Assembly: GCA_017465885.1 (NCBI GenBank)
Contig: JAFTVG010000011.1
Coordinates: forward strand, 75,276-139,275
Direction: 5' to 3'
Length of the DNA stretch: 64,000 bases
From: Clostridia bacterium
GTDB lineage: Bacteria; Bacillota; Clostridia; Oscillospirales; CAG-272
The notes under the pieces are model-generated. The model searched no databases and had not been told where the DNA came from. It saw only the letters and a list, made by a program, of their open reading frames with translations. The translations under genes were made by a program, and so were the position numbers. Position 1 is the first letter of the stretch; every line of letters begins with the position of its first letter. Of the stretch, positions 2,312 through 62,240 are shown piece by piece.

Positions 2312-3406
2312 TTACCTTTGCTCATACTCCTTTTTCTTTTTCAAGAACCGCAACGTCACGATGCCGATCCCCAAGCAAAGCCCCGAAACAAGCAGGTAAA
2401 GGGCGGTATTGTCACCCGTTTGGGGAGGGTTTTCTTCCATAGCGTCAAGCTCGGCTACTCGCGCCTCCAGCGCGGCGATGTTCTTTTTGAATTCACTGTC
2501 TTCTCCCTGCCAATCAAAACCCGTTGTCTCATTGGCATTTTTGAGCATCCGCTTTATACCCGGTGTGTTGATCTTATGCCCCAACATCCACTCGACCAGG
2601 CTTTTTCCAGCGTACTCCTCATATTGATCGTTGTATTGGAGCCGCCACATCTGTTGAATTTTGCCATCCACTACCATACCGTAAGGAAGAACGCACAGCT
2701 CCCTGACCTTGTTTTCATCAGGCAAATACAGGGCGTCAATCAAATAGCTTTGGTCGTAATTGCAGGAAAGAGCCCCCTGCTCCTTCAACGCTTCAAATTC
2801 CTCGTCTGTATACATAGAGAGCTTTTCTCTGATCGTATCCGGATTCTGACGCGACAGCTCGCAAGCTGCACGAAGCTCCTCCTTGGTGATTCCAAACTCC
2901 TCAATACACCCCCGCATATAGGGCAAATGCTGGTCATAAACAGTGCTACTGTAAGAGCCCCATTGATCCTCATATTCATAGTCCGTGATATAAATGCACC
3001 GCTCGTTTAAAATTTGATTCAATTCCTCTGAATAAATGTAATAGACATCTTCTACCGACGGCAAATATTGCAGCTGTCGATCAGCGGGAAGCTCCCACGA
3101 AGGTCCGTTTTCATAGTATTCTGCCTCGCGCCGCTCAAATGTCAAGCTGTCAAAGGCATCGGTATAAAAGAGAACGGTCATATTGTTTCCAAGGATCGGG
3201 CAGTTCGGAATAACCGAATCCACAAGACCGGTAGTTCTGATCTCCCCCTCTGCCTCGTTTTTCCGATCCCACAGCTTTTCGTAATCCATATCTACCCACA
3301 GGTCGTTTTCCTTGGCAGATACCCCGAAAGGCAACAGCAAAAGTGCTATGAGGGTCAGGGCAACAAGGGCGGTCAGTCTTTTCACTGTTTTTTTGGTGGT
3401 TTTCAT
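2312..3406 (-). CDS. Secreted surface protein of unknown family with C-terminal (S/P)PXTG sorting signal (paralog 1)
   Basis: Signal peptide (LLLLPFGVSA). The C-terminus has PPQTGD, then a hydrophobic stretch, then RFLKKKKEYEQR. An RBS (aaggaaagga) lies upstream. It shares long blocks with the adjacent gene (LTVLFYTDAFDSLTFERR; RGCIEEFGITKEEL; DALYLPDE). Confidence 0.7.
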   Translation of the reverse strand: MKTTKKTVKRLTALVALTLIALLLLPFGVSAKENDLWVDMDYEKLWDRKNEAEGEIRTTGLVDSVIPNCPILGNNMTVLFYTDAFDSLTFERREAEYYENGPSWELPADRQLQYLPSVEDVYYIYSEELNQILNERCIYITDYEYEDQWGSYSSTVYDQHLPYMRGCIEEFGITKEELRAACELSRQNPDTIREKLSMYTDEEFEALKEQGALSCNYDQSYLIDALYLPDENKVRELCVLPYGMVVDGKIQQMWRLQYNDQYEEYAGKSLVEWMLGHKINTPGIKRMLKNANETTGFDWQGEDSEFKKNIAALEARVAELDAMEENPPQTGDNTALYLLVSGLCLGIGIVTLRFLKKKKEYEQR

Positions 3407-3433: not shown

Positions 3434-4489
3434 TCAAAGGTCGTTTTCGTTCTTTTTAATGCGCCGTACGCTCAAAACAAGCGCCGCCGCAGCTCCAACA
3501 AGGATGAAAAGATAAAGAGCGGTACGATCACCCGTTTGGGGAGGATCGTCGTCGAAGTCGTCAAGGGGCTCGAGCATGGCGTTTTGCAGAGAATAAAGCT
3601 GTGCCCCCGCGCCGTTTTGCAGATATTCAAACTCCTCCGCTGCCAAAAAGGCGTTTTCAAGGAAGCGGGCGAAGCCGGGATTTTGAATATCGCTGGTCAT
3701 CAAATGCGCCGCAATGGCACCGTTGCCGTCGTGCATCAGCTCTGCCAAAGTGACGATCTGCCCGTCCACCAGAGCGGCAAAGGGGTAAAGGCAGAGGGCA
3801 GTCACGTCCGCTTCATCGGGCAGGTAGAGTGCGTCCACGATATAGTCGTTTTCGGGAATGCAGGTGAGCAGGCCTCTGCTCTTCATTTGCTCAAATTCCT
3901 CGTCGGTGAACATCGAAAGCTTTTCTCTGATGGCGTCGGGATCGCTTCTTGAAAGGGCGTACGCCGCCAAAAGCTCCTCCTTGGTGATGCCGAATTCCTC
4001 GATACAACCGCGAAGATAGGGCAGCACCTGCGTGCGCTCGCCGTCTTTGATCTCAATGCAACGTCTGTCAAGAATTTCGGAGAGCTGCTCGCTGAAGATA
4101 TAGGAGGTGCCGCCTCTGTAGCCGTGGTAGACGGTGGGCAGATAGAGCGTTTCTCTCTCGCAGGGAATATGCCAGAAAGCGCCTTGGGGGGCTTGTGCAT
4201 TTTCAAAGATCCTTCTTTCAAAGGTCAGAGAGTCAAAGGCGTCGGTATAAAAAAGGACGGTGAGATCGTTGCCCATAAAGGGGCACAGGGGGATCATCCC
4301 CTCCATCAAGCCGGTGCGCACCATTTCGCCCTCGGCTTCGTATTTCTTTGCCCACAGCTCTTCACTTGACCCCTCCTGCCACAGCTCCTGACCGCTTGCG
4401 GCAATACCTGAGAGAAGAGAGAGCAGTACGGTCAGACAAAGGAGGGCGACCGCACCCTTTTTCATCATATTCTTCACCGAGTTTTTCAT
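3434..4489 (-). CDS. Secreted surface protein of unknown family with C-terminal (S/P)PXTG sorting signal (paralog 2)
   Basis: Signal peptide. The C-terminus has PPQTGD, then a TM stretch, then RRIKKNENDL. RBS ggaaggag. It is a tandem paralog of 2312-3406. Confidence 0.7.
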   Translation of the reverse strand: MKNSVKNMMKKGAVALLCLTVLLSLLSGIAASGQELWQEGSSEELWAKKYEAEGEMVRTGLMEGMIPLCPFMGNDLTVLFYTDAFDSLTFERRIFENAQAPQGAFWHIPCERETLYLPTVYHGYRGGTSYIFSEQLSEILDRRCIEIKDGERTQVLPYLRGCIEEFGITKEELLAAYALSRSDPDAIREKLSMFTDEEFEQMKSRGLLTCIPENDYIVDALYLPDEADVTALCLYPFAALVDGQIVTLAELMHDGNGAIAAHLMTSDIQNPGFARFLENAFLAAEEFEYLQNGAGAQLYSLQNAMLEPLDDFDDDPPQTGDRTALYLFILVGAAAALVLSVRRIKKNENDL

Positions 4490-4519
4490 TTTTTACTCCT
4501 TCCCGAGAACGCTTCGTCC

Positions 4520-5015
4520 ATCTCTTTTTTCTTTCGTTTGGCTCTTCACTATATAAGTACAGTTTTTTTCTTGAAAATCAACGCAAAATATAAAATTTTT
4601 CAAAAAAATTTTTCGTGTACGAAAGGTCTTTTTTCTTGCCTTTCGCCCTTCACCATATAAGTACGGTTTTTTTCTTGAAAATCAACGCAAAATATAAAAT
4701 TTTTCAAAAAATTTTTTCGTGTACGAAAGATTCTTTTCTTTCCTTTCGCCCTTCACCATATAAGTACGTTTTTTTCCTTAAAAATCAACGCAAAATATAA
4801 AATTTTTCAAAAAAATTTTTTCGTGTACGAAAGGTCTTTTTTCTTGCCTTTCGCCCTTCACCATATAAGTACGGTTTTTTTCTTGAAAATCAACGCAAAA
4901 CATAAAATTTTTCAAAATTTTTTCGTGTACGAAAGATTCTTTTCTTTCCTTTCGCCCTTCACCACATAAGCACGGTTTTTTTCTTGAAAATCAACGCAAG
5001 CCACAAATTTTTCAC
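4520..5015. repeat. Tandem direct repeat of about 102-104 bp in 4 full copies plus a diverged proximal copy, located in a divergent intergenic region
   Basis: The palindrome TTTCGT-GT-ACGAAA recurs at 4611, 4715, 4819 and 4921. The block CTTCACCATATAAGTAC...CTTGAAAATCAACGCAAAATATAAAATTTTTC recurs with the same period. Units alternate between two subtypes (GGTCTTTTTTCTTGCC versus ATTCTTTTCTTTCC), which implies a higher-order unit of about 208 bp. Confidence 0.9.
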
Positions 5016-5016
5016 C

Positions 5017-5046
5017 GCAAAAAAGGCAGGGCTCCATCCCTGCCTT
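5017..5046 (-). terminator. Hairpin with a U-tract on the minus strand at the distal edge of the repeat array (possible insulator or terminator)
   Basis: AAGGCAGGG-ctccat-CCCTGCCTT forms a 9-bp stem. On the minus strand it is followed by TTTTTT. No obvious minus-strand gene ends here. Confidence 0.35.
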
Positions 5047-5103
5047 CCCCTTCGGTCAAAGCTGTCCGCTTGGCTCATTTTTCCTGCCGCTTGCGAAAAA
5101 TCA

Positions 5104-5132
5104 TTGATTTTTTTATCGGTTCGTGCTATAGT
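5104..5132 (+). promoter_or_regulatory. Sigma-A-type promoter for the SGNH hydrolase gene
   Basis: TTGATT, 17-nt spacer, TATAGT, located about 40 nt upstream of the RBS and ATG at 5170. Confidence 0.5.
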
Positions 5133-5169
5133 TAAGGATAGAAATGCTTCCCGAAAGGAGGTCGCACAA

Positions 5170-6147
5170 ATGTTTTATAACGTCTCCCGCTCCTCTATCC
5201 GTTTCATCGGCAGGTGGGCACCGCTTCGCTACGGTATGGCGGCAACCGCCCCCGGAGCCTATATTGAGCTTGCCTTTGAAGGCTCTGAGGTCACCCTTTA
5301 TTTTGACGTGCAGGATCTGACTCTGCCCTTCCCCCATCTATGGGTGGAGCTTGACGGGGGTGGTCTTTACGAAACGCCCGTTGACCGCTATCTGCGCGTC
5401 AGAGCAAAAAAAGAGGGCGGTCACTTTTTACGCATCTATTTTAAGGGTGCGCGCGAAACGGCAAACCGCTGGCACCATCCCCTGCAGGGCTACGTCCTCT
5501 TCACCGGCTTTGAGGCGCAAGGCGAGGGCGCACTCCCAAAGGACGGGCGCAAGACGCTGGAGCTGATCGGCGATTCCATCACCGAGGGGGTGCTCATCGA
5601 TCCCCAATACGCCCCCAACTGCGAAAACGATCAATATAACCGTCCCTATCAGGACGACGCCCTTTCCACCTACGGCTTTCTTCTTGCCCAAAGGCTGAAC
5701 CTCATCCCTCTTTTTTGCGGCTACGGTGCTACGGGCGTGACAAAGGGCGGATGCGGCGGCGTGCCAAGCGCGCCGGAAACCTATCCCTATTGCTTTGAAA
5801 ATGCCCATGTTGGCTATGCCCCTGCCGACTTTACCCTCATCAACCACGGCACCAACGACAGACACAACCCCCATCTGTTCAAGGAGGGCTACACGGCTTT
5901 GCTTGATCTGGTGTTTGCCCGAAATGAAAACGCCCGCGTTGCCTGCATCATCCCCTTCTGCGGGGCATTTGCCGAGGAGCTTAAGGAGCTGGTGCCCGTT
6001 TACGCCAAGAAAAGGGGCAAGGAAAACGCTCTTTTGCTGATTGACACCGCGGGGTGGCTGCCTCCCGACCCCCTGCACCCCTTAAGAGAGGGGCACGCCT
6101 TGGCGGCAACGCGGCTTGCGGAGATCCTTTCATCCTTTTTCATTTAA
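5170..6147 (+). CDS. SGNH/GDSL-family hydrolase with an N-terminal beta-sandwich-like domain (carbohydrate esterase-like)
   Basis: RBS gaaaggagg lies 8 nt before the ATG at 5170. SGNH blocks are present: LIGDSITEG (block I), NHGTNDR (block III) and DPLHPLREGH (block V, DxxH). The longer ORF-track start at 4984 runs into the tandem repeats. Confidence 0.75.
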   Translation: MFYNVSRSSIRFIGRWAPLRYGMAATAPGAYIELAFEGSEVTLYFDVQDLTLPFPHLWVELDGGGLYETPVDRYLRVRAKKEGGHFLRIYFKGARETANRWHHPLQGYVLFTGFEAQGEGALPKDGRKTLELIGDSITEGVLIDPQYAPNCENDQYNRPYQDDALSTYGFLLAQRLNLIPLFCGYGATGVTKGGCGGVPSAPETYPYCFENAHVGYAPADFTLINHGTNDRHNPHLFKEGYTALLDLVFARNENARVACIIPFCGAFAEELKELVPVYAKKRGKENALLLIDTAGWLPPDPLHPLREGHALAATRLAEILSSFFI

Positions 6148-6201: not shown

Positions 6202-7293
6202 TTAGTTTTCTTCCACCTTGCCCGTCTTTTCGTCCACGAGCTGTGCCATCTGGCTCATCTTTTTGGGCAGGGCAAAAAGGAAGGTGCTTCCCTTGCCTAC
6301 GGCACTTTCCACCTTTACCGTTGCCCCAAGAAGCAGACCGATCTGCTTGACCAAGGCAAGCCCCAAGCCGTTTCCCTCGGTGGTGTGAGAGCGGTCGGTC
6401 TGGTAAAAACGGTCGAAGATGCGCGCCATCTCCTCCTCCGTGAGCCCCGGACCCTCGTCGCCGATCCGCGCAACGATCCACTCCTCATCCTCCTTTAAGG
6501 AGATGGAGAGTCTTCCGCCCTTGGGAGAAAACTTGATGGCGTTTGAGATCAGGTTGACCCAGACGTGGGAAAGAACGCTCTCGTCGGTCTCGTATAAAAG
6601 CTCGTCCATATCGATATCCAAGGAAAGATCCTTTTCCATCCATTGCTTTTCAAATAGCAGCAGGGCGTGGCGGATCTGCTCGTCGATGTAAAACTCGCTT
6701 TGCTCGGTGACGTACTGCTGGTTTTCAAGCTTGGTCAGTAACAGAATATTCGTGGAAAGACCCGATAAGCGCTCGGACTCCTTCACGATGAAGTCGATAT
6801 ACTCCCTTTTCTGCTCCTCGTTTAGGGTATCGTCCAGCTGAAGCTGCTTGGCAAAGCCGCGGATGGACACGATGGGCGTCTTGAATTCGTGGGAAAAATT
6901 GTTGATGAAGTCCTTGCGAAACAGCTCCGTTCCCTCAAGCTCCCCCGCCATCCGGTTGAAGTTTTTATATAGATCGGTATAGTCCCCTTCACCCTGGGGC
7001 ACCTCCACGCGGGCGGAAAAGTCGCCGTTTTCCACCTTTTGCATAGCATCGTTCAAATTCTTCATGGGCTTTAAAATATGCTTGACGAGCAGCGGAAGAA
7101 CGAGCATAGACAAGATCATACTGGCAATTGCGCAGAAGAAAGGGATAATAAGGGGCGATCTTGAAATAAAAAGAGTCAAAGGAAAGCGCAGATGAAAGCT
7201 TACGATCACTAAAAGAGCCACGATGGTGCCCATTGCAAGCTGGGTTGCCAATATGAGCAGGGCGGTCTTAAAAAAGAGTGATTTGTATTTCAT
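6202..7293 (-). CDS. Sensor histidine kinase (HssS-like, two N-terminal TM segments)
   Basis: HisKA H-box FSHEFKTPIVSIRGF. HATPase blocks NLISNAIKF, GDEGPGL and GNGLGLALV. Overlaps the response-regulator gene by 4 bp. Confidence 0.85.
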   Translation of the reverse strand: MKYKSLFFKTALLILATQLAMGTIVALLVIVSFHLRFPLTLFISRSPLIIPFFCAIASMILSMLVLPLLVKHILKPMKNLNDAMQKVENGDFSARVEVPQGEGDYTDLYKNFNRMAGELEGTELFRKDFINNFSHEFKTPIVSIRGFAKQLQLDDTLNEEQKREYIDFIVKESERLSGLSTNILLLTKLENQQYVTEQSEFYIDEQIRHALLLFEKQWMEKDLSLDIDMDELLYETDESVLSHVWVNLISNAIKFSPKGGRLSISLKEDEEWIVARIGDEGPGLTEEEMARIFDRFYQTDRSHTTEGNGLGLALVKQIGLLLGATVKVESAVGKGSTFLFALPKKMSQMAQLVDEKTGKVEEN

Positions 7294-7964
7294 TTCAAAT
7301 ATACCGCCTTGTAGCCAAGACCCCTGACGGTGACGATCTCAAAATCCTCGTTGCCCCTGAAGCGGTCGCGCAGACGGTTGACATGCACGTCCACCGTGCG
7401 CTCGTCGGTGTCGCAGTCCATTGCCCAGATCTCGTCCATTAACTGACGGCGGGTGAAGATCTGCCCCGGATAGGACAAAAGCTTGAAAAGCAGAAGGAAT
7501 TCCTTCTGGGGCGGCTCACTGCGCACCCCCTTTTCGGTGACCGTCATCCCGCTGTAATCAAGAACGGTGGAGCCCACGGAGATCTTTTTTTCGGAGGCAA
7601 TGCGGGAACGGCGCAAAAGAGCGGTGATCCGCCACAGCAGCTCCTCCTCGTCCACGGGCTTGGTCATATAATCATCAGTGCCCGCCAAAAAGCCCTCTTT
7701 TTTATCTCTGTGCGTCTGCTTGGCGGTGACCATCAGTATGGGCAGGGTGCTGTTGCCCTGACGAAGAGTTCGGGCAAACTCGTATCCGTCCATTTCGGGC
7801 ATCATCACGTCAAGGACCACCAGATCCACGTGCTGCTCGTCAAGCAGCTCCAGCCCCTCCACGCCGTTTGCGGCGGTGTGCACGGTATAGCCCGCTCTGC
7901 CAAGGACGGCTTGCATCAGTCTTCTTTGAATGGGATCGTCTTCCACGACCATAATATTGAACAT
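7290..7964 (-). CDS. OmpR-family response regulator (HssR-like)
   Basis: Receiver domain (VVEDD...DLVVLDVMMP...TAKQ...KPV) plus a winged-helix output (VDVHVNRLRDRF...VRGLGYK). GFLAGTDDYMTKP resembles HssR-type regulators. Confidence 0.85.
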   Translation of the reverse strand: MFNIMVVEDDPIQRRLMQAVLGRAGYTVHTAANGVEGLELLDEQHVDLVVLDVMMPEMDGYEFARTLRQGNSTLPILMVTAKQTHRDKKEGFLAGTDDYMTKPVDEEELLWRITALLRRSRIASEKKISVGSTVLDYSGMTVTEKGVRSEPPQKEFLLLFKLLSYPGQIFTRRQLMDEIWAMDCDTDERTVDVHVNRLRDRFRGNEDFEIVTVRGLGYKAVYLK

Positions 7965-8136
7965 ACGCGTCTCCTTTTCATATATCGAGCTTCTCTTTTA
8001 TGCTATCATACTACCTTTTTAATTTTAATTCAATATAAATTTCACAAATATTCACGCCAGCGGTAAAAAAGTTCAAGTGCAGTTCATTTTTGGATGATAT
8101 ACTGCTTTGGTAAAATGGCAAGAAAGGTCTAAAAAC

Positions 8137-11100
8137 ATGCTCAAACTCCAACAAATCACAAAAACCTACGACGTGGGAGGCGACCTGAAGGTACAGGCGC
8201 TGCGCGGTATCGATCTGGAATTCCGCAAGAGCGAATTCGTCTCCATCCTCGGCCCCTCGGGCTGCGGAAAAACCACCCTTTTGAATATCATCGGCGGACT
8301 TGACAGAAACACCACGGGTGATCTGTTCATTTCGGGCAAATCCACCGCCCATTATGGCGATCGAGAGTGGGATAACTACAGAAACCACTCCATCGGCTTC
8401 GTCTTCCAAAGCTATAACCTGATCCCTCATATGGACGTGCTTGCAAACGTGGAGCTTGCCCCCACCATTTCGGGCGTATCCAAGGCAGAGCGGCGCATCC
8501 GCTCTGTGGAGGCGTTAAAGAAGGTGGGCCTGGGCGATCAGCTTCATAAAAAGCCCAATCAGCTCTCGGGCGGTCAGATGCAGAGAGTTGCCATCGCAAG
8601 AGCGCTGGTCAACGATCCCGAGATCCTTTTGGCAGACGAGCCCACCGGCGCTCTTGACACCGTTACAAGCGTACAGATCATGGAGCTTTTGAAGGAGATC
8701 TCCAAGGATCGCCTGATCATTATGGTCACCCATAACCCCGATCTCGCCGAAGAATACTCCTCCCGTATCATCAAATTGAAGGACGGTCTTGTGGTGGACG
8801 ACTCCGATCCCTACGTGGCACCCGTTGCGGCAAAGGAGGAGGCGAGCCCCGCCGTACAGCCCGTAAAGAAGAAAAAGAAAAAGGAAAAGATGGCCTCCAT
8901 GTCCTTCTTCACCGCCCTTTCCCTTTCCACCAAGAACCTGCTGACGAAGAAAGCCAGAACGGCGCTGGTCAGCTTTGCGGGCTCCATAGGCATCATCGGT
9001 ATCGCCCTCATTCTCTCCCTTTCAAACGGCGTACAGATCTTCATCGATCAGGTGCAGGAGGACACTCTGTCTGCCTATCCCTTGAGCATCAATAAATATT
9101 CCTCCGACACCGCCGCCCTCTACGAGGCGATGGTCAAGGTGGAAAACAACACCACCGAATTTGAAGAGGACCGCATCTATCCCGACGATTCACTGGGTAG
9201 TATGATGAGCGCGATGACCCAGATCAAGACAAACAACATCGAAGGCTTTATCGACTACTTTGAAGAGCACAAAGGCGAGCTTAAGGGCAGTCTGAACGCC
9301 TACAAGCTGATCTACGATCTGACCATCCCCGTTTACACCGTCTTCGAGTCGGAGGGCAAAGAGTCGGTCATTCAGACCAACCCCACCTCTATCTTTGACT
9401 ATATGGGTGAGGAGATCAAGACCATGATGTCCTCTATGACCGCTCTGGCAGGTGGAAACACCGGTATGACCTTCTATCAGGAAATGCTTGAAGGGGTGGA
9501 CGGTGAGCTGATCAACCCCGTGGTCAAGGAGCAATACGACCTGGTGGGCGAAAACAGCCGCTGGCCCGAAAACGCCAACGAGGTGGTGCTTGTGGTGGGT
9601 GAAAACAACCGCATCAGCAATATGGCGCTCTACGCTTTGGGCTTCAAGGACCCCAACGAGATCGAAGAGGTGCTGGGCTCGCTGATGGACCCCAACAAGG
9701 AATATGACAACAAGATCGAGGAGGGCTTCTACTATGAACTGGACGACTTCATCGGTCACACCTTTACCTACGTTTTGCCCACCGACTATTTCTATAACGA
9801 TGAAGACAGCGGTCATTACACGGTGAACGGCAAAAAGTATCCCATCTGGAACGACCGCAGAGAGCAGATCGGCTTCAAGGAGAGCGACTTCCTTGAGCAA
9901 TACGGCAAGGATCTGACGGTGGTGGGCATCATCCGTCCCGATCCCGATGCCACCTCCACCTCTATTTCCTCCCCTATCGCCTACACCGCCGCTCTGACCC
10001 GCGACATCATCGCGCAGGTGGAAAAAACCGACCTTGCCATCCAGCAAAAGGCCACCCCCGACTACGACGTGTTCAGCGGCACCACCTTTGAGGAAATGGA
10101 ATTTACCAAGGAAAACATCGACGTCTTCCTTGATATGCTGAAGACAGATCAGAAGCAGAGCCTGATCATGATGATCAATCAGATGATGCAGACCGCCTTC
10201 ACCGAAGAGCGTCTGCCCGCCACCCTGCAGGCTCTGGACGATCAGTCCTTTGCCACCATGGTGAAGATGTACGCTCCCAACTATACCAAGGCAAACGTGG
10301 GCGAGTTCGTGGCAAGTCTTGATGAACAAAGTGCCATGGCACTGATCGGAATGCTGACCCAACAGACCGGTCAGCCCATCACCACGGAAAGCCTGCCTGC
10401 CGTTCTTTCTATGATGGACGACGAGTCCTTTAACGGCATCGTTGCCATGTTTGATAAGTCTGCCCCCAAATATTCCAAGGATCAAATCGACGCCTTCCTT
10501 GAAGCCATCGGGGAGGCAGGCAGAGGGGCAATGCTGGAGCAGTTCAAAAAGAACATCGTGGTCACCGAGGAAAATCTGGCGCAGACCCTTTCGGGCGTGA
10601 CCGACGAGGAGTACGAGCAGCTCACCGCCTACTATCTGCCCGAGGATCAGCGTACCACCTACGAAACCAACCTGACCAAGATCGGCTACCAGGATAAGAG
10701 CCGCGTCAATTCCATCCAGCTCTTCGCCGTGGACTTTAACGGCAAGGACGAGATCAAGGCATTCGTGAACAAGTATAACGAATACGCCGTCAACAAGGCG
10801 ATGGAAGAGGATCCCGGCAAGGATGAGAAAGAATACGACAAGTACAAGGTGGAGATCAGCGATATGATCGGAGCGCTGATGTCGGGCATCAACGTGATCA
10901 TCAACGCCATCTCCTACGTGCTCATCGCCTTCGTTGCCATTTCGCTGGTGGTTTCCTCCATTATGATCGCCATCATCACCTATATCTCGGTGTTGGAGCG
11001 CATCAAGGAGATCGGTATTCTCAGATCGCTGGGTGCTTCCAAGAAAAACGTCCGTCAAGTCTTCAATGCCGAGACGCTGATCGAGGGCTTCATTTCGGGT

Positions 11101-11313
11101 GCCCTTGGCATCATCGTCACCCTGATCGTCTGCCTGATCGCCAACCCCATCATCCACGAGCTGACGAATTTAAACAACATCAACGCCACCCTGCCCGTCC
11201 TCGCCGTGCCGATCCTTATCGGCATCAGCGTGCTTCTCAACGTCATCGCAGGTCTGGTTCCCGCATACCTGGCATCCAAGAAAGACCCCGTGATCGCTCT
11301 GAGAAGCGAATAA
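8137..11313 (+). CDS. Fused ABC transporter ATP-binding protein / FtsX-family (MacB/HrtB-like) permease with a very large extracytoplasmic domain
   Basis: Walker A GPSGCGKTT, signature LSGGQMQRV and Walker B LLADEPTGALD at the N-terminus. One TM lies near aa 290, followed by about 600 aa of extracytoplasmic sequence and a C-terminal FtsX-type TM bundle (ERIKEIGILRSLGASK). ATG at 8137 with RBS gaaagg. Transcribed divergently from the two-component system. Confidence 0.85.
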   Translation: MLKLQQITKTYDVGGDLKVQALRGIDLEFRKSEFVSILGPSGCGKTTLLNIIGGLDRNTTGDLFISGKSTAHYGDREWDNYRNHSIGFVFQSYNLIPHMDVLANVELAPTISGVSKAERRIRSVEALKKVGLGDQLHKKPNQLSGGQMQRVAIARALVNDPEILLADEPTGALDTVTSVQIMELLKEISKDRLIIMVTHNPDLAEEYSSRIIKLKDGLVVDDSDPYVAPVAAKEEASPAVQPVKKKKKKEKMASMSFFTALSLSTKNLLTKKARTALVSFAGSIGIIGIALILSLSNGVQIFIDQVQEDTLSAYPLSINKYSSDTAALYEAMVKVENNTTEFEEDRIYPDDSLGSMMSAMTQIKTNNIEGFIDYFEEHKGELKGSLNAYKLIYDLTIPVYTVFESEGKESVIQTNPTSIFDYMGEEIKTMMSSMTALAGGNTGMTFYQEMLEGVDGELINPVVKEQYDLVGENSRWPENANEVVLVVGENNRISNMALYALGFKDPNEIEEVLGSLMDPNKEYDNKIEEGFYYELDDFIGHTFTYVLPTDYFYNDEDSGHYTVNGKKYPIWNDRREQIGFKESDFLEQYGKDLTVVGIIRPDPDATSTSISSPIAYTAALTRDIIAQVEKTDLAIQQKATPDYDVFSGTTFEEMEFTKENIDVFLDMLKTDQKQSLIMMINQMMQTAFTEERLPATLQALDDQSFATMVKMYAPNYTKANVGEFVASLDEQSAMALIGMLTQQTGQPITTESLPAVLSMMDDESFNGIVAMFDKSAPKYSKDQIDAFLEAIGEAGRGAMLEQFKKNIVVTEENLAQTLSGVTDEEYEQLTAYYLPEDQRTTYETNLTKIGYQDKSRVNSIQLFAVDFNGKDEIKAFVNKYNEYAVNKAMEEDPGKDEKEYDKYKVEISDMIGALMSGINVIINAISYVLIAFVAISLVVSSIMIAIITYISVLERIKEIGILRSLGASKKNVRQVFNAETLIEGFISGALGIIVTLIVCLIANPIIHELTNLNNINATLPVLAVPILIGISVLLNVIAGLVPAYLASKKDPVIALRSE

Positions 11314-25919: not shown

Positions 25920-25941
25920 GAAAACACAAAATAAAACCAAA

Positions 25942-26037
25942 ACAGAGTAAGCTTTTTTGCGTAAAGTGCCGTGGGGACGGGGAGTTGCCCGACGGACGAA
26001 GGCTATGCCGCGGTAAAAAGGCTGCATCCCGCTGTTG
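25942..26037 (+). ncRNA. THF (tetrahydrofolate) riboswitch
   Basis: ACAGAGUAAG..GCGUAAAGUG..ACGAAGGC..GCCGCGGU..GCAUCCCGCUGU matches, block by block, the conserved THF-riboswitch core as I recall it (AGAGUAG..GCGUUAAGUG..ACGAAGC..GCGCGGUG..GCAUCCGCUC). It lies upstream of a folate-type ECF S component. ACCTCC (26057-26062) can pair with the SD GGAGGT (26090-26095). Confidence 0.8.
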
Positions 26038-32879: not shown

Positions 32880-32956
32880 GCTGGTATGGCTCAGTTGGTA
32901 GAGCACATCCTTGGTAAGGATGAGGTCATCAGTTCGAATCTGATTACCAGCTCCAG
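32880..32956 (+). tRNA. tRNA-Thr (anticodon GGU), CCA encoded
   Basis: Cloverleaf folded by hand: acceptor GCTGGTA/TACCAGC, D stem GCTC/GAGC, anticodon stem CATCC/GGATG with loop TTGGTAA, T stem ATCAG/CTGAT. Confidence 0.9.
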
Positions 32957-32989: not shown

Positions 32990-33083
32990 TTTGCTATTTG
33001 TTTACATATAGTATTTGACAAGCCCACCGACTTTGTGGTATACTTATACCATAAATTCGATATGCGATCACGGAGAGACCGTT

Positions 33084-34754
33084 ATGCTTTTAAAAAAGAC
33101 CCTTTGCATTCTTCTCTGCCTGCTGACGGCGGCAGGCATTCTTGCGTCCTGCTCCAAGGGCCAAACCACCATCCCCGCCCTGCCATCCGCCCCCTCGGGT
33201 GAAACGGGCGAGAGCGGAAGCACCGATCTGCCCCCCGCAGGATGTCTTCACACCAATACCAAAAGGATCGCCGACAAGGATGCCACCTGCACGGCGGACG
33301 GCTACGAGGACAAGCTGAAATGCAAGGACTGCGGCGAGGTGCTGGACGCCAGCGGAACCGTCCTTTACGCCAAGGGACATCAATACAAAAACCGCTCCTG
33401 CGTCTACTGCGATAAGCCCGAGCCCGACGTTGCCACCGAGGGTGTTTTCCCGGGTACGAGTACCTATTGGAAGCTTTATACCGACGGTGAACTGGAGATC
33501 GGCGGCGAGGGAGCCACCCCCGATTTTGACGAAGCAGACGACAGTTATTTTTATAAATACAACAAAGCAGTCACCTCCATCGTGGTATCACGGGGGGTAA
33601 CGCGCATCGGTGACAACCTTTGCAGAGTGCTCAAGGAGGCGGAGAGCATCAGCATCTCCTCCACCGTCACCGAGATCGGCGACCACGCCTTTGACGGATG
33701 GGAGCTGGAGGAGCTGAACCTGCCCCTCCGACTGGAAAAGCTGGGCGACGAAAATTTCACCTCCAACAAGCTCTTTTTCTTGGAGCTGCCCAATACCCTG
33801 ACGTACGTGGGCGCAGGATGCTTTGAATCTACACAGCTCATTACCCTGAGAGTGCCCTCCTCGGTGACCACCTTTAAAACGGTGAAGGGACAGTTCTCCA
33901 ATCTGGAAAACCTCGCCTTTACGGGAAGCATGGAGCAGCTTATGCATCTGGATCTGGGCAGACACCTGAAGGTAGACGGAAAATGCGCGCTGGTAAACGT
34001 GCTTTGCAACTTTACGGATGCGGCAAACAGTCTGCCCTACTGCACCAAACGAGGACAAAAGGAGGGGGATTTCACCTATATCGTCTATACCGACAAAACG
34101 GCTCGGATCTCCAAATACAGCGGTACGGCAGAGGATTTGGTCATCCCCGAAAAGATCGGCGGATATACCGTAACCGGCATACACAACACCTGCTTTGAGG
34201 AAAGCGGGGCGCTGGTGAAAGTGACCCTGCCAAAGACACTGAAGACCATCGGCAGAGAGGCCTTCGTTGACAGCTCCATTTCCGAGCTGGTCATCCTCTC
34301 CCCCGAGGTGCGGGTAGCAGACTTTGCCTTTAAGGGCTGTGCTTCGCTGAGCAAGTTGACCTTTGAGGGCGTCTTTACCGACATAGGACACGGCGCGTTC
34401 TCGGCAACGCATATTTCAAACATCAACCTCTCTCCCAAAATGGACGCTCTGCGCGAGTCGGCGTTGGCTCAGACAGAGGTCAAGATCCGAGATTTTACGC
34501 AATTTGACTATATCGGCGACAGCGCACTTGCATACACCTCCCTTGGAAGTGACATCGACCTGACGGGCGTCAAGGAGATCGGCTTCGGTGCCTTTTACCG
34601 CGCGGGAGTGTTGGGCGCAAACGTGACCAACGTGGGCAAGATCGGGGCATATGCCTTCCACCTCAACGGAAACCTGGATAATGACAACGTGATCGGTATT
34701 GCAACCGTTAAAAGCATCGATCCTGCAGCATTCGAATTCAAAACAGCCCCATAA
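33084..34754 (+). CDS. Lipoprotein with BspA-type leucine-rich repeats
   Basis: RBS ggagag plus ATG at 33084. Lipobox ILASC. Repeated units of about 23 aa of the form ...I..I.D.AF..C..L..I.LP. Confidence 0.75.
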   Translation: MLLKKTLCILLCLLTAAGILASCSKGQTTIPALPSAPSGETGESGSTDLPPAGCLHTNTKRIADKDATCTADGYEDKLKCKDCGEVLDASGTVLYAKGHQYKNRSCVYCDKPEPDVATEGVFPGTSTYWKLYTDGELEIGGEGATPDFDEADDSYFYKYNKAVTSIVVSRGVTRIGDNLCRVLKEAESISISSTVTEIGDHAFDGWELEELNLPLRLEKLGDENFTSNKLFFLELPNTLTYVGAGCFESTQLITLRVPSSVTTFKTVKGQFSNLENLAFTGSMEQLMHLDLGRHLKVDGKCALVNVLCNFTDAANSLPYCTKRGQKEGDFTYIVYTDKTARISKYSGTAEDLVIPEKIGGYTVTGIHNTCFEESGALVKVTLPKTLKTIGREAFVDSSISELVILSPEVRVADFAFKGCASLSKLTFEGVFTDIGHGAFSATHISNINLSPKMDALRESALAQTEVKIRDFTQFDYIGDSALAYTSLGSDIDLTGVKEIGFGAFYRAGVLGANVTNVGKIGAYAFHLNGNLDNDNVIGIATVKSIDPAAFEFKTAP

Positions 34755-35040: not shown

Positions 35041-35117
35041 GGCGGAATAGCTCAGCTGGCTAGAGCAATCGGTTCATACCCGGTAGGTCGTGGGTTCAAG
35101 TCCAACTTCCGCTACCA
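35041..35117 (+). tRNA. tRNA-Met (anticodon CAU, elongator-like), CCA encoded
   Basis: Acceptor GGCGGAA/TTCCGCT (G1-U72). Anticodon arm ATCGG-TTCATAC-CCGGT resembles Firmicute elongator tRNA-Met. The T stem has one G-A mismatch. Confidence 0.8.
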
Positions 35118-35119
35118 TT

Positions 35120-35194
35120 GGCCCGTTGGTCAAGAGGTTAAGACACCGCCCTTTCACGGCAGTAACATGGGTTCGATTCCCGTACGGGTCACCA
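35120..35194 (+). tRNA. tRNA-Glu (anticodon UUC), CCA encoded
   Basis: Close to the Bacillus tRNA-Glu sequence as I recall it (GGCCCGUUGGUCAAG.GGUUAAGACACCGCCCUUUCACGGC.GUAAC). There is one C-A mismatch in the anticodon stem. Confidence 0.85.
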
Positions 35195-49348: not shown

Positions 49349-52300
49349 TCAGTTCATTTTTGCATAAACCTTTTTGCCTGCAAAAGCCACTGCCGCAAGG
49401 CAGAGAACCGAAAGCAGAACGAAGAGCATCGTCTGTTCACCGGTCACGGGAGGCTCTACAGGAGGATCTACGGGAGGATCTACGGGAGGATCTACAGGAG
49501 GATCTACAGGAGGATCCACGGGCTCGCTCCAATCGTCGGTCAGCTCTTCGAAGAGTGCCGTGTAGGTCACGCCGGCGGTCACTGCGGGCAGAGCGGTGCC
49601 TGCCTCGTAAAGAGTGGTGCCATCGGACCAGCCGAGGAAGACGTAGAAGGTCTCGCTGTTTTCACCGTATACGGGATTCTTGTAGGGATCTGCAACTACG
49701 GGAATATCACCCTCTGCAAACTTTTTCTCGGTTGCCACACCGTCTACCACGAAGATCAAAGTCTGGATGGTGGGGTCGGTGTAGGCGTGAACCTCTGCAA
49801 AGTGCAGAGCCCAGTTGGAGGAGTTGTAGGTACCGTAGATACGGAAGTAACGGTACTCGCCGATATCGTTGCCGCAAGCAAAGCGATAAGAGCCGTTACT
49901 GGGATCCTCGGTATGCTGTTCGCCGATGTAGTCCCACTTGGACAGGGGCAGAGTAGGATCGTTGGTTGCATAAACATCGAACTGATAATATCTGCTGCCC
50001 TGATAGAAGCCAACGTCGAAAGCAGAAACGATTACCTTTTCGCCGAAGTCTACCTGAACGTAGTCTTCGTTTTCCTTGGCTGCATAGCCGGGAGTTGCGG
50101 TTACTTCGTCATAAATGGGCTCAGCGTTTACTCTGAACTTGTTCACGTCCGAAGTGCCCATATATGCCAGATTGCCTTCCTCGTCATAAAGCATCACGGT
50201 TACAACGTAGGAGGAATCGTACTGAGGGATAAACTGATTCTCACCCTCTGCTTCGCAAACGTTGAAGCGCCACAGTCCGAGAGGCTCGTACTGGGAGGAG
50301 GGCTGCATATCGGACAGCTTCATTGCCGAAGAAACGTATGCACCGTTTTCGCGGTTTCTTTCACCGTCGGTGAAGAGCAGACGAACGGTATAAGCGGACA
50401 GATCCAGCTTGTTGCCTGCCTCGTCCTTTAAGATGGTGAGTAGCTCGGTCACGTTGTTTCTGTTTTCAAAGCCCTGAATGTCGCCGTAAACGTAAGGCGT
50501 TACAGACAGATCTGCCACGCTGCGCTCAGCCACGGTTGCGGCTGCCAGAGCGGCATTGTCCTCTGCGACCACGCTCATCAGCTCACTTGCGGTCACGCCG
50601 TTGAGAACCAGCTTCACGTTGGTGCAGCCGTCAAGAACCTTTGCGCCAACACTCTCGATACCGCCGAAAACGGTCACGGTCACGCCGTTGGCACCGCAGG
50701 CAAGAGCGCCCTCGCCCAGCGTGCTCACGCCCTCGCCGATGAAGATCTTTTCTACCTTGTCAAGGCCCTTGAATGCATCCTTACCGATGCTGTCTACAGA
50801 ATTGGGGAATACGAAGATCTCGGTGATCTCGTCTGCAAAGCGGGTCCAGGGATAGGTCTCTTCTTCAACGTCGCCCGTTCCGCCGATGATCAGCTTGCCG
50901 GCCTCAAGAGTCCATCTGTAGCCGTCAAACTGGTCGTACCAGTGCAGGTCGCCCACGTAGGTCTCATAATCGTTGTCGGTCATTTCCTTAGTGATGTCGG
51001 TGCCGTCGCCCATAGTCACCTTCATGGACAGCTCCTTGAGCACCTTGGGTGCGGGGAAGGTCTCGATCTCAGCAAAGTGAGCGCCCCAGTTTGCAGAGTT
51101 GTAGGTGCAGATGAAGCGCACGTAACGGTAGGAAGCGTAGTTTCCGTCATCATCGGGCTGTACCTTTACCTCGTAAGCGCCGCTGCTGGTCACGTCATCG
51201 GACTTTTCACCGATGAGCGTCCACTTGGACAGAGGCAGAGTGTTGTCGTTGGAAGCAAAGACAAGATACTTATAGTATCTGGAAGCGATGCACATGGTGA
51301 TCTTGAAGGATCCGATGGGCAGAGACTCGCCCAGATCCTGCTCAATGTAGTTGTGCTGGCAAGCAAGGGAGGGAGTTGCCGTTCTCTCTTCAAAGATGGG
51401 CTCCTCGTTTACCTTGAACTTGTTCACGTCAGATTTGCCGGTATAAGCCAGAACGCCGTTCTCATCATAGAGCATCACGGTGATCACGTAAGAGGAATCG
51501 TACTGAGGAATGAACTGATTTTCACCCTCAGCCTGGCAGACGTTGAAGCGCCACAGTCCCAAGCCATCATCCTTGGAGGAGGGCTGCATATCGGACAGCT
51601 TCATTGCCGCAGAGAACCAGCCGCCGTTTTCACGGATTCTTTCGCCGTCGGTGAAGAGCAAGCGAACGGAGTACTTCTCTAAATCAACGTTATTGCCTTC
51701 TGCGTCCTTGATGATGGTCAGCAGCTCGGTCACATTGTTTCTGTTTTCAAAGCCCTGAATGTCGCCGTTCACGTAAGGAGTAACGGTCAGGCTCTTCACG
51801 GTGTTTTCGGTAAAGGCAGCACCTGCTAAAACGGCATTGTCTGCATTTACCACGCCCAGGACCGCGTCCTTGGTGGCGTTGTTGAGAACGACCTTTACGT
51901 TGGTGCAGCCGTCAAGAACCTTTGCGCCAACGGAGGTCAGGGTCGCGGGAGCGGTAACGGTGATACCGTCTGCGCCGCAAGCCAGCGCGCCTTCGCCAAG
52001 GGTGGTCACACCCTCGCCGATGTAGATCTTTTCAACCTTGGTAAGGCCCTTGAAGGCGTCCTTGCCGATGGTGGTTACGGTGTTGGGGAATACGAAGATC
52101 TCGGTGATCTCGTTTGCAAAGGGAGTCCAGGGATAGCTGTCTCCCTCAACGGCACCCTTACCGCTGATAAGCAGCTTGCCTGCGCGCAGCGCCCATTCGT
52201 AGCCGTCTTCAAAGGCGTCGTACCAGGTAATGTCGCCGTATGCCGCAGTATAGGAACCCGTGTCGCCGTCGGTCACGGTGGCGGTGATGTCTTCTCCGTA

Positions 52301-52426
52301 AGGATCGGTAAAGGTGGTGCCTTCGTAAGCGACCGCGTCGTCAGCCGCAGAGCCAAGTGCCATTGCGGGAACGAGAGAAAGAACCATTACCAATGCCAAC
52401 AGAAAAGCTACTACTCTATTTTTCAT
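49349..52426 (-). CDS. Large surface protein with duplicated [LRR plus F5/8-type-C (discoidin)-like] module, a PPVD repeat stalk and a (S/P)PXTG-type sorting signal
   Basis: Signal peptide. Two homologous halves of about 427 aa. Discoidin-like ends (YRYVRFICTYNSANWGAHFAEIETF / YRYFRIYGTYNSSNWALHFAEVHAY). (PVDP)n is followed by PPVTGE, a TM stretch and KKVYAKMN. Confidence 0.75.
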   Translation of the reverse strand: MKNRVVAFLLALVMVLSLVPAMALGSAADDAVAYEGTTFTDPYGEDITATVTDGDTGSYTAAYGDITWYDAFEDGYEWALRAGKLLISGKGAVEGDSYPWTPFANEITEIFVFPNTVTTIGKDAFKGLTKVEKIYIGEGVTTLGEGALACGADGITVTAPATLTSVGAKVLDGCTNVKVVLNNATKDAVLGVVNADNAVLAGAAFTENTVKSLTVTPYVNGDIQGFENRNNVTELLTIIKDAEGNNVDLEKYSVRLLFTDGERIRENGGWFSAAMKLSDMQPSSKDDGLGLWRFNVCQAEGENQFIPQYDSSYVITVMLYDENGVLAYTGKSDVNKFKVNEEPIFEERTATPSLACQHNYIEQDLGESLPIGSFKITMCIASRYYKYLVFASNDNTLPLSKWTLIGEKSDDVTSSGAYEVKVQPDDDGNYASYRYVRFICTYNSANWGAHFAEIETFPAPKVLKELSMKVTMGDGTDITKEMTDNDYETYVGDLHWYDQFDGYRWTLEAGKLIIGGTGDVEEETYPWTRFADEITEIFVFPNSVDSIGKDAFKGLDKVEKIFIGEGVSTLGEGALACGANGVTVTVFGGIESVGAKVLDGCTNVKLVLNGVTASELMSVVAEDNAALAAATVAERSVADLSVTPYVYGDIQGFENRNNVTELLTILKDEAGNKLDLSAYTVRLLFTDGERNRENGAYVSSAMKLSDMQPSSQYEPLGLWRFNVCEAEGENQFIPQYDSSYVVTVMLYDEEGNLAYMGTSDVNKFRVNAEPIYDEVTATPGYAAKENEDYVQVDFGEKVIVSAFDVGFYQGSRYYQFDVYATNDPTLPLSKWDYIGEQHTEDPSNGSYRFACGNDIGEYRYFRIYGTYNSSNWALHFAEVHAYTDPTIQTLIFVVDGVATEKKFAEGDIPVVADPYKNPVYGENSETFYVFLGWSDGTTLYEAGTALPAVTAGVTYTALFEELTDDWSEPVDPPVDPPVDPPVDPPVDPPVEPPVTGEQTMLFVLLSVLCLAAVAFAGKKVYAKMN

Positions 52427-58671: not shown

Positions 58672-61600
58672 CTATACCTTGCCAGAAAGAAGCGTTAACA
58701 GCCCCGTCACATCGGAAATAGTAACCTCTTCGGTATCATCAAGCTTCATCGCAGGGTAAAGCACTACGCCATCCACGATAGCTTGCTTTTGCTCCTCTTC
58801 GCTCATTGCCAAAAACGTAAGCATTTGCGTCACATCAGAGATAGTCACTTGTCCGTTAGCATCCACATCTCCAAGAAGCATCACAGTAATGATGGTATCT
58901 GCGGTCACATGATGAACCGTGTAGGAATCTGTTTGATCTGCTGAGTTTTCCTTTTGAAGAATCTCGTAACTCACGCCCTTGTCATAGCTCACCGTTACAA
59001 TATAGGGTTTTTCACAGGTAACTTCAAAGATATTGATTCCTATTACCCATCCTCCCTCCGGCGCAACGATCACAGCTCCCGACAAGCCTGCACCAACGCT
59101 ATTTAAAGTAATTGCAACACTCTCTCCCGAACCGTCTGAAGGGCTGTCGCCCGAATCGCCGGAGCCGCTTTCGGTATTACCGCTTGAAGCTCCTCCCGAT
59201 TCACTTCCAGAAGAACCATCGCCGGTGTTTCCGCCCTCGTCGTCTGTTTCGCCGCCGGAAGAGCCGCCTTGGCTCTCATTATTACCATCATTTCCTCCCG
59301 ATTCAGTAGAATCATCGCCTTCCTCTTCTCCCGAAGAATCACCTGAACCGCCGCCTGCGCCATCCTCGGGTTTTTCCATTTCTTGCGCTACCCAAGTCAA
59401 CATCCCACCGTAGTTTTGAAGCATTGAAGAAGTCCAAGCCGAGTTATTTGAGGGATAGTAGCAGGTGGCTTCGACATCGCTGAATGCCGATGTCCCAATA
59501 ATCGGCGCATTCCAATTAAAAACAACATTTTTAATTTTAGTGCACATATCAAAGGCGTATCCACCAATTTCATCAATACCGGCACCAATTGTTAAACTTT
59601 TTAACTTGCACTGATAAAAAGCATATTCCCCAATGCTTTTTACACCATCAGGAATCACAATACTACTAAGGCATTCACACCAGCTAAAGCATTGATCACC
59701 GATATGTTCAAGAGTACTAGGCAAAACAATACTTTGAAAATTGCGGCACGGGTAATATCCGCTGTAAATTGTATAAGAGCCACACCCCGAGAACGCCTTG
59801 TTGCCAATACTAACTAACCCTTCAGGCAAAACCAAACTAGATAATGCAGCACAGCTTGCAAACGCCGAATTACCAATTGTAGTAATCATTGCAGGCAGAT
59901 CCACTTTTTCAAGTCTGTAACAAGACATAAATAAACTGTCTGGAATATAGGTCAAGCTATCTGGTAAAACCACATCGGTCAAATACGCACTTTCACAAAA
60001 TGCACCTTTGCCTACCTCAAACACCCCCTCCGGAACTGTAACAGACGTTAATTGTGATTTGGAAAAAGCAACTTCTCCGATCTCTGTAAGTCCCTTCGAA
60101 AGTTCTATAACGGAAAAAGCGGTTTGATAAAAAGCTTTTGAACCAATCCTCGAAATCGTGTCGGGCATAGAAACACTACTCAATACCGTACAGCTATAGA
60201 ACGCACCGTCTCCAATAGAAGTTACCCCGTTTTCAATAACAACGCTTCTAACAGATGTGCGTTGCTCGTACCATGGAGCATATATCAACTCATCGACCAC
60301 ATAATCGTACATGGTACCGGTTCCCGAAATTGTCAGCATCCCATCCTCGCTCAGCGACCAAGTTAACTTATCTCCACACTTATTTCCAATCTCCTCTTCT
60401 CCTTCATAGGTCCAAATGAGATCTCCGCCAAAGTCAGCAGTGGTGAATTCCAAAGTATATGTGCCGTTTTCCGCAGGATAGTAACAGGTAGCAACTACTC
60501 CTACAAACGCCTGCGCATCAATAGCAGGAACATCCCCCGTAAAATCCACTCGCGATAAACCACTGCAACCACCAAAAGCGCTTGCTTCGATCTGTGTTAC
60601 AGAAGCTGGAATCGTGATCTCTTCAAACGCAGTACATCCAGAAAAAACACCCGTGCTAAGCACCTGCAAATTATCGGAAAGCTTTATCTCCCGAACGCTT
60701 GTACAGTTTTGGAATGCATATTGATCTACCAATACAGTACTGTTTGGAAGTCGAATTTGAGAAAGCGCCGTACCACTGTACGCATAACTTCCAATCGTCT
60801 CTACACTGCTTGGAATGCGGACATCGGACCAAGCTGAAAGATTGTAAAATGCATACGAACCGATCGTTTTTACACTATCGGGCACTGTCATTTCCGTAAG
60901 AGCTGAAAGCCCATAAAAAGCATTTTTTCCAATCGTCTGCACCCCCGAAGGAAGATCCACACGCTGTAGCTCAGAACATCCATAAAACAGTCGGTCGGAA
61001 ATCGTTAGAAGTCGGTCTGAAAGACTTGATGATTCTAAAGCATCACATCCTTCAAAAGCGCCTGCTCCTAACTCCGTCACACTATCCGGAAGGGATACTT
61101 CCGAAAGAGCATCACACTCTGCAAAAGCGTTCATTCCAACTTGTGTCACAGTAGAAGGAATTGTTATGCTTTTTAAGTTTTTGCAGTACGCAAAAGCAGA
61201 ATTTCCGATAGATGTAATATGATCGGGAATCACGTACTGTTCAAAATTACATCCATAAAACAAAGCATCATTCAGCGTGGTCACAGCTTGCGGAATAGTA
61301 ACCGGCTCCAAGGAAGTACAACCGGAAAACACCGCCGCATCAATTGATGAAACACTTTCCGGAATATCTAGTTCTTTCAAATTTGAACAGTCACTGAATG
61401 CACCTGCTGAAATACTTTGCAAACTTGAGGGCAACTGAACTTGGTTTAAATTTTCACAAGCAGCAAAAGAATATTTACCAATAGTTAAAACCCCCTCCGA
61501 AATTGTCAAATCAGTAATGAGCGAATAATCATAAAATGCAAACTCACCAATACGACTTACATCCTCCGGAATAATTAATTCACCTTCAACAGCTTTTCCT

Positions 61601-62175: not shown

Positions 62176-62240
62176 TGTAAATACCACCTTTACTATAAAT
62201 TTTTGTGTAGGGCAATTCTACCTTCCACAAAAAGTATTTA

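Follow-up and report, generated by a model that had tools for sequence, protein, structure and literature searches.

An array of five head-to-tail repeats, each of about 104 bp, lies immediately upstream of a two-gene surface-protein operon in an uncultured ruminant-gut Clostridia bacterium. The array is contained in a 64,000-nt stretch of contig JAFTVG010000011.1 (the window; all coordinates are window positions) and is polymorphic: strains of the same species carry two, three or five units. It is reasonably probable that the array is a promoter tandem repeat: a minisatellite whose units copy the promoter region of the operon itself and which sets the expression of the two surface proteins. 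The evidence comes from the structure of the array, from orthologous loci in which the unit stands alone, and from allelic differences among closely related strains. Fetched loci that were compared with the window are referred to by L-numbers (L002–L031).

Tandem Repeats Finder places the array at 4523–4999 (period 104, 4.6 copies, 91% matches, score 784) and detects no other long-period array in the window; a separate repeat search returned five copies at spacings of 104, 103, 105 and 101 bp. Both results bear out the five-copy, head-to-tail arrangement that had been proposed from a first inspection of the DNA (the original prediction). The five units are designated U5 (distal) to U1 (proximal), and their boundaries are given in Table 1. 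The original prediction also held that the intergenic region is almost entirely array. This is true of 525 of its 680 bases; the remaining 155 hold a terminator-like hairpin and the promoter of a divergent GDSL-lipase gene. The repeated part stops 33 nt before the ATG at 4489, and the array has a G+C-content of 28–30%, compared to ~55% in the genome.

Among U2–U5 the whole 104-bp period is repeated at 87–98% identity and, as predicted, there are no unique spacers. The proximal unit had been described as the most diverged; U1 is indeed just 72–79% identical to the others over its full length, because its last ~33 nt are a unique leader with a ribosome-binding site, while the first ~80 nt are common to the other units. 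The linkers that join the units alternate B, A, B, A from the distal end (GGAAAGAAAAGAATC versus GGCAAGAAAAAAGACC), so that the two alternating subtypes of the original prediction stand. Its further suggestion that a 208-bp dimer was duplicated is only roughly right, because U5 and U3 are merely 89% identical, compared to 98% for U4 and U2. A conserved 27-mer block noted at the outset, CTTGAAAATCAACGCAAAATATAAAAT, is present in four copies when up to one mismatch is allowed (zero expected in the window), the fifth (distal) copy being cut short. Outside the array the window contains no copy of this 27-mer, of a 25-mer or of the linker palindrome discussed below.

The array is non-coding, as had been claimed. 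Small open reading frames beginning at the ATG inside TATATGG were rejected on the grounds that their frames differ between A and B linkers and that they lack a ribosome-binding site, and a 61-aa plus-strand frame (4615–4800) was rejected as the repeat read through. Candidate plus-strand promoters within the units (TTGAAA-N12/14-TATAAA/TAAAAT) were also discarded: their spacers are too short and none was called by the promoter scan. A periodogram of AAA showed no peak at 10–10.5 bp, the signature sought for A-tract phasing and curvature.

On the minus strand, which is that of the operon, each unit has the form TGAAAAATTTTATATTTTGCG-TTGATT-TTCAAGAAAAAAAC-CGTAC-TTA-TATGGT-GAAGGGCGAAAGG, followed by a linker. 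Its parts are an AT-rich upstream (UP-like) tract, a −35-like TTGATT, an A7-rich spacer, (C/T)GTA, a −10-like TAT(A/G)GT and a leader of ~30 nt. The A linker is CAAGAAAAAAGACC and the B linker AAAGAAAAGAATC; each continues into TTTCGTACACGAAA and an A/T run.

Orthologous loci are decisive for the identity of the unit. Every window unit aligns without gaps, over the core TTGAYT..A7..YGT(A/C)..TA(T/G)(A/G)GTG(A/T)AAG, to a single block upstream of orthologous surface-protein genes. This core occurs once upstream of the gene in L007/L010 (44% protein identity), L015 (54%), L014 (59%) and L009 (83%), where its sequence is TTGACTTTCTCTAAAAAAATTCGTCAGATAGGGTGAAG in L007, TTGACTTTTGAAGAAAAAAACTGTCTTATAGGGTGTAAG in L015, TTGACTTTCAAAGAAAAAAACTGTCATTAAGGGTGTAAG in L014 and GTGACGAATCGAAAAAAAAACGTACATATATAGTGAAAGG in L009. 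In L007, L009, L014 and L015 the core (the most proximal copy) begins 77–93 nt before the ATG. In the single-copy orthologs it is preceded by an AT tract of the type TTTTTTGAAAAA, usually after the terminator of the upstream gene. Conservation is highest in two blocks, TTGAYT and TAnnGT. Between them lie a conserved A7 tract and YGT(A/C) along with indels, yet these indels compensate one another, and the distance stays at exactly 22 nt in every lineage. Because the same core stands singly upstream of orthologous genes, the repeat unit is evidently the operon's own promoter region together with ~30 nt of leader. Among the possibilities raised at the outset, the comparison thus speaks for multiplied promoters. 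An exact-pattern scan of Joint Genome Institute (JGI) metagenome contigs for the promoter core gave no matches.

Closer lineages occupy an intermediate position: L004 (96% protein identity), L011/L012 (95%) and L005 (90%) each carry two diverged copies ~100 bp apart. In these two-copy lineages both cores are intact and the linkers are unrelated, the palindrome-bearing linker being present in L011/L012 and not in L004/L005. The existence of diverged pairs with unrelated linkers indicates that promoter duplication at this locus is both old and recurrent, and that the five-unit array of the window is a recent amplification of the proximal type. Across lineages the copy number runs 1, 2 and 2–3–5. 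The linker between the two copies in L004 (4855–4915; also in L005) holds a sequence resembling the gene start (AAAAAATGAAAAAACT, compared with AAAAAATGAAAAACT); preceded by GGGAG at a distance of 10 nt, it opens an 11-codon mini-frame (MKKMKKLQNSR*). A past duplication that took in the start codon may have left it behind.

To compare strains, loci of the same species were found by look-ups of the neighboring proteins; all are from short-read metagenome assemblies, and flank identity is 98–99.9% (98.3–99.9% in the loci with two, three and five units). A second sample (L027, assembly ERZ28019339) carries the same five-unit array in a strain 99.79% identical over 8,153 nt (16 single-nucleotide polymorphisms, SNPs). 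Three units are present in L020/L028 (ERZ28018951; 3 SNPs in 3,633 flank bases) and in L018/L025 (ERZ28654305, produced with a different assembler; no SNPs in the same 3,633 flank bases, and a scaffold gap in the third unit). Two units are present in the metagenome-assembled genome (MAG) GCA_054285025.1 from NCBI (L024; 98.3% flank identity). Comparison of copy number between strains had been proposed as a check on the array, and the answer is unambiguous: copy number is not invariant.

The alleles also retain traces of their origin. The three-unit allele is exactly 208 bp shorter than the five-unit allele and differs by a clean deletion that joins U4 to U2: its middle unit combines the 5′ marker of U4 (TTTTATGTTTT) with the 3′ marker of U2 (A5T7). 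This is the product expected of a crossover between U4 and U2 within the 84-bp stretch that they share, which appears to be how it arose. The distal unit of the two-unit locus L024 is a mosaic of U5, U3 and the A linker.

Given that every sequence derives from short-read metagenome assembly, and that N-gaps inside the array break two scaffolds (L006/L019/L026 and L018/L025), it might be argued that an assembler expanded or collapsed the repeat. The chance of this is negligible. The five-unit array did not collapse to one unit in an independent assembly; it recurs, identical, in the second sample, in a strain 16 SNPs distant. The longest exact repeat in the array (84 nt) is shorter than the assembly k of 141, and the three-unit contig requires 56 junction 141-mers that the five-unit allele lacks. 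A de Bruijn simulation at k = 31 predicts that unitigs of the five-unit allele end at 4591 and 4935, and that the three-unit allele shows no break; Logan k = 31 contigs of SRR12529362 and SRR12529335 (L002, L003, L021, L022) end at precisely the two predicted bases. Because independent assemblies differ, and because the Logan ends fit the five-unit prediction, we exclude an assembly artefact: the array is real and its copy number polymorphic.

One further locus departs from the pattern. In L031 (ERZ27256821, flanks 97.8% identical) the contig leaves the array after two units and enters 213 nt of unrelated DNA (3521–3733) with an inverted repeat, CCCTTAAAATTTC / GAAATTTTAAGGG. Neither the window nor any of the other fetched loci contains a match to this stretch, which may represent an insertion or rearrangement at the array.

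How might such an array act? Units of ~104 bp, each comprising the promoter region and ~30 nt of leader and joined by a short palindrome-bearing linker, recombine with one another, either by unequal crossing-over or by slippage during replication, across identical stretches that reach 84 bases. Strains gain and lose whole units as a result, and alleles of two, three and five units coexist within the species. Transcripts started in distal units would mostly read through into the operon, given that the linker hairpins are weak (−5.8 kcal/mol) and that the terminator scan flagged none in the array. Copy number would then set both the number of initiation sites and the length of the leader, and with them a heritable, reversible level of expression of the two sortase-anchored proteins. 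We infer that each unit has promoter activity and that copy number affects expression; the array probably adjusts the level at which the surface proteins are produced.

Several observations weigh against this mechanism. The promoter scan flags only U1 among the units (TTTTCA-18-TATAGT, 4577–4548), so that by consensus U1 alone is sigma-70-like; the −10-like hexamer is TATGGT in U2–U4 and, in U5, TGTGGT, which lacks the key A at the second position. The 22-nt gap between TTGAYT and TAnnGT is not a standard sigma-70 spacing, for which reason we assign neither a sigma factor nor exact promoter elements; neighboring genes, unlike the surface operon, have canonical TTGAxx-17-TATAxT promoters. The core did not fit the SigK, SigE, SigB, SigI or extracytoplasmic-function (ECF) consensus sequences, and a search upstream of the single-copy orthologs for an ECF or other alternative sigma-factor gene found none, the small genes there having no Pfam matches. 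The extra AT-rich DNA could equally lower expression, by promoter occlusion or silencing. Finally, there are too few substitutions among units for a selection test on the distal cores.

Some of the same observations would be accommodated by a neutral, unstable minisatellite in which only U1 works, the distal copies being decaying by-products of unequal recombination that have no effect on expression. U1, besides being the only unit to pass the scan, has the best −10 hexamer (TATAGT); the −10-like region of U5 carries two substitutions (CCGTGCTTATGTGG); and copy number drifts among near-identical strains without visible linked change. We nevertheless regard neutrality as unlikely. The −10-like hexamers of the distant single-copy orthologs (TAGGGT or AAGGGT) are no nearer to consensus than the TATGGT of U2–U4, and in the two-copy lineages both cores have survived intact the replacement of their linker. 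Moreover, a strong terminator immediately before U5 would suit an insulator for a working block of promoters.

A second alternative is that the distal units are tandem genes for short RNAs, each yielding an RNA of ~45–50 nt that extends from just after TATGGT to the palindrome and a U-run. On the minus strand the linker does read as an A-run, TTTCGTACACGAAA and T6–7, a terminator-like layout. The stem consists of just five A/U-rich pairs, worth −5.8 kcal/mol even with the A:U tails included, and the terminator scan was silent; RNA folding of the unit is not significant for either strand (z = −1.4 and −1.5); and the linker is not conserved in L004/L005. Searches of Rfam, with the whole window at the gathering threshold and with 4350–5250 at E ≤ 10, returned only noise in the array. 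Short-RNA genes are thus a very improbable explanation.

The palindrome itself deserves separate consideration. As originally reported, exact copies of TTTCGTGTACGAAA stand at 4611, 4715, 4819 and 4921. The rest of the window has none; allowing up to two mismatches there are 11 matches on both strands, compared to 0.66 expected. It lies in the linker between promoters and forms a weak hairpin with A/U tails. It is present in all alleles of the same species and in L011/L012 and, among the fetched loci, at this locus only. One reading is that the array multiplies operators: the 14-bp palindrome would bind a putative dimeric regulator, and repetition at ~104 bp would multiply repressor or activator sites for cooperative control of the operon. 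Such a reading can point to a period of about 10 helical turns, which places the palindromes on the same face of the DNA, and to the invariance of the palindrome in all four linkers even though A and B differ at four to five positions just upstream, as well as to its retention in every same-species allele and in L011/L012. In L031 a single change in one copy creates a perfect 7+7 palindrome (TTTCGTGCACGAAA).

The distribution of the palindrome among orthologs tells a different story. It is absent upstream of the single-copy genes in L007, L009, L014 and L015 and from the L004/L005 linker, and for this reason we do not consider it an ancestral element of the promoter or its control. The right half (ACGAA..AATTTTTT) is part of the AT tract that lay upstream ancestrally (compare AAACGAAGAATTTTTT in L004), so the palindrome, lying at or near the duplication junction, may simply be a by-product of duplication. 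There is no further copy in the window for a regulator to act upon, no candidate regulator travels with the gene, and the adjacent two-component system is unlinked in other lineages. An operator role for the palindrome is possible; that operator multiplication explains the array is, in our estimation, quite unlikely. Equally doubtful is a combination of the two ideas, in which an operator born at the junction varies together with the promoters by recombination, so that a putative regulator cooperatively gates a variable number of promoters in the manner of a rheostat.

Taken as a promoter tandem repeat, the array finds its closest known counterparts in the promoter tandem repeats, or promoter variable-number tandem repeats (VNTRs), of Mycobacterium tuberculosis. 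There, repeats of 58 bp at lpdA (VNTR3690) and of 57 bp at dop (one to three copies) vary between strains by whole units, and a strain engineered to carry a second copy of the lpdA promoter formed more biofilm, an effect attributed to higher lpdA expression (PMC12817950). The window array resembles them in that the unit duplicates the promoter of the downstream gene and lies directly upstream of that gene, that whole units are gained and lost among close strains, and that the repeat is proposed to set the level of expression. It has three of the features that define a promoter VNTR: upstream non-coding direct repeats, promoter elements in each unit (judged by homology only) and whole-unit differences in copy number. 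Its unit, in contrast, measures 104 bp, roughly double the length of theirs, and is strongly AT-rich against the 55% G+C of its Firmicute host; it further differs in having two alternating linker subtypes and a junction palindrome, and in its target, a sortase-anchored surface-protein operon of an uncultured gut anaerobe.

Variable direct repeats upstream of surface or virulence genes are also familiar from simple-sequence phase variation. The hmw1A and hmw2A genes of Haemophilus influenzae phase-vary through 7-bp repeats in their promoters. Other instances of promoter or intergenic simple-sequence repeats are the 8-bp VNTR between clbR and clbB of Escherichia coli (PMC7364221) and those of a study of H. 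influenzae 5′ untranslated regions (PMC12721329). In these systems, as proposed here, modulation is heritable and reversible. Their units, of 1–8 bp, change spacing or leader structure and contain no promoters, unlike the window array, and slip at rates far above those expected of 104-bp units; with units of 100–105 bp, and not 1–9 bp, the array is not a simple-sequence contingency locus.

Other classes of repeat were considered and rejected. A clustered regularly interspaced short palindromic repeat (CRISPR) array would not repeat its whole period, as U2–U5 do, and would possess unique spacers. A dispersed intergenic repeat, such as a repetitive extragenic palindrome (REP), a BOX element or a miniature inverted-repeat transposable element (MITE), should recur beyond the array, and neither the 27-mer, the 25-mer nor the palindrome does so in the window. 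The sopC centromere of the F plasmid consists of 43-bp direct repeats, each with an inverted repeat, and is likewise an assembly of head-to-tail units with a short palindrome at fixed period. The window array, unlike sopC, has a chromosomal context (tRNA genes, a riboswitch, housekeeping genes) with no partition or replication genes nearby, and a unit homologous to a promoter; a BLAST search of plasmid and phage collections with the array gave no match, and an iteron or centromere array was accordingly set aside. The Listeria LhrC1–5 genes form a tandem family of small RNAs. They too are ~100-bp tandem units with individual promoters, and they lie beside a two-component system; the window array, unlike LhrC, has no credible terminator, stable RNA structure or Rfam match, and with a linker hairpin that no scan called, tandem small-RNA genes of this kind were rejected as well.

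That surface proteins can be tuned heritably and reversibly is amply documented for pathogens, and hardly at all for the dominant, uncultured anaerobes of gut ecosystems. The present promoter minisatellite, with its long unit, is visible directly in public metagenome assemblies as alleles of two, three and five copies, and its recombinant junctions show how the array changes. Polymorphism and junctions are unusually well documented for data drawn from metagenomes alone; the principle is already established, and the function is one that we infer. Such arrays are systematically under-reported in MAGs because they break short-read contigs, as the Logan contigs and the two interrupted scaffolds illustrate. 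If copy number sets expression, then the two sortase substrates are good candidates for strain-level variation in attachment to host or particles.

Table 1. Position and strand of the array, its units and the neighboring features in the window.
Feature	Position	Strand	Description
Operon-end hairpin and T-run	~2222–2258	−	Read by eye, after second gene
Second operon gene	2312–3406	−	364-aa paralog, 43% identity to first; Pfam Gram_pos_anchor match
First operon gene	3434–4489	−	351-aa protein: signal peptide, C-terminal PPQTGD sorting signal, transmembrane/hydrophobic segment, basic tail
Whole array, U5 (distal) to U1 (proximal)	4490–5014	−	Tandem Repeats Finder, unit boundaries and alignment
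U1 unique leader	4490–4522	−	Ribosome-binding site AAGGAG at 4496–4501
U1, proximal	4490–4602	−	Repeated part 4523–4602; TTGATT 4576–4581; best −10-like hexamer TATAGT 4548–4553
U2, 104 nt, A-type linker	4603–4706	−	TTGATT 4680–4685; TATGGT 4652–4657
U3, 103 nt, B-type linker	4707–4809	−	Spacer variant TTTTTAAGG; TTGATT 4783–4788; TATGGT 4755–4760
U4, 105 nt, A-type linker	4810–4914	−	TTGATT 4888–4893; TATGGT 4860–4865
U5, distal, 100 nt, B-type linker	4915–5014	−	TTGATT 4989–4994; −10-like hexamer degraded to TGTGGT 4961–4966
Palindrome TTTCGT-GT-ACGAAA, U2/U1 linker	4611–4624	.	Identical copies 4715–4728, 4819–4832, 4921–4934
Terminator-like hairpin	5019–5044	−	GGCAGGG-ATGGAG-CCCTGCC then T6; just upstream of U5
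GDSL-lipase gene promoter	5104–5132	+	Canonical, extended −10, TTGATT-17-TGcTATAGT; outside array; promoter scan
Divergent GDSL-lipase gene	5170–6147	+	Pfam Lipase_GDSL_2

The description of the downstream genes as a surface-protein operon is well founded: each of the two products carries a signal peptide as well as a PPQTGD sorting signal at the C terminus, and the two genes are separated by 27 nt. The gene after the operon, past the operon-end hairpin, has its own promoter, TTGAAA-17-TATAAT. The family to which the surface proteins belong is tiny, with 18 clusters in a collection of 5.8 billion proteins, all from Clostridia MAGs or gut metagenomes, and its consensus sorting signal is PPKTGD. 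No Pfam domain was found in the body of the protein, and a fold search of the PDB with an AlphaFold model (pLDDT 78, pTM 0.70) gave no match at E<1, the best being E = 1.5. The number of paralogs differs by lineage: L005 and L009 have a single gene; the window, L014 and L015 each have two. A search of genome contigs matched only two MAGs, from water-deer rectum and roe-deer cecum, both with single-copy promoters, and a protein-profile scan of JGI metagenome contigs returned one truncated locus (L016) without upstream DNA.

The minus-strand terminator-like hairpin that was predicted to cap the distal end of the array is real and strong: the 56-nt stretch that contains it (5005–5060) folds at −28 kcal/mol. 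It should shield the array from minus-strand read-through. The hairpin is oriented with the surface operon, though the gene upstream of it is divergent; the equivalent hairpin in L007 and L009 ends a co-directional upstream gene, ahead of the promoter. At the window locus it may be a relic that has been retained as an insulator.

The neighbors of the array are the GDSL lipase, a two-component system, an ABC/FtsX transporter, a GFO oxidoreductase and SfsA. Adjoining the surface-operon region are genes for a HAMP histidine kinase (6202–7293, minus strand) and an OmpR-type response regulator (7290–7964, minus strand), with a fused ABC_tran+FtsX protein of 1,068 aa (8107–11313, plus strand) divergent from the pair. 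The layout (6202–11313) resembles the BceRS/BceAB module for sensing peptide antibiotics. In other lineages these genes do not accompany the surface-protein gene; control of the operon by this system was rejected on account of its being unlinked in L007, L009, L014 and L015.

Elsewhere in the window are a tetrahydrofolate riboswitch (25941–26036, plus strand; 88 bits, E = 4e-19) and tRNA genes at 32880–32952, 35041–35114 and 35120–35191. Three genes encode BspA-type leucine-rich-repeat proteins (33015–34754, plus strand; 49349–52426 and 58672–62187, minus strand). The second of these proteins also has a NedA-like galactose-binding domain, and its gene contains an in-frame 12-nt tandem repeat, GGAGGATCTACA, in 5.7 copies at 49445–49522; it may be a second surface-protein locus of variable length.

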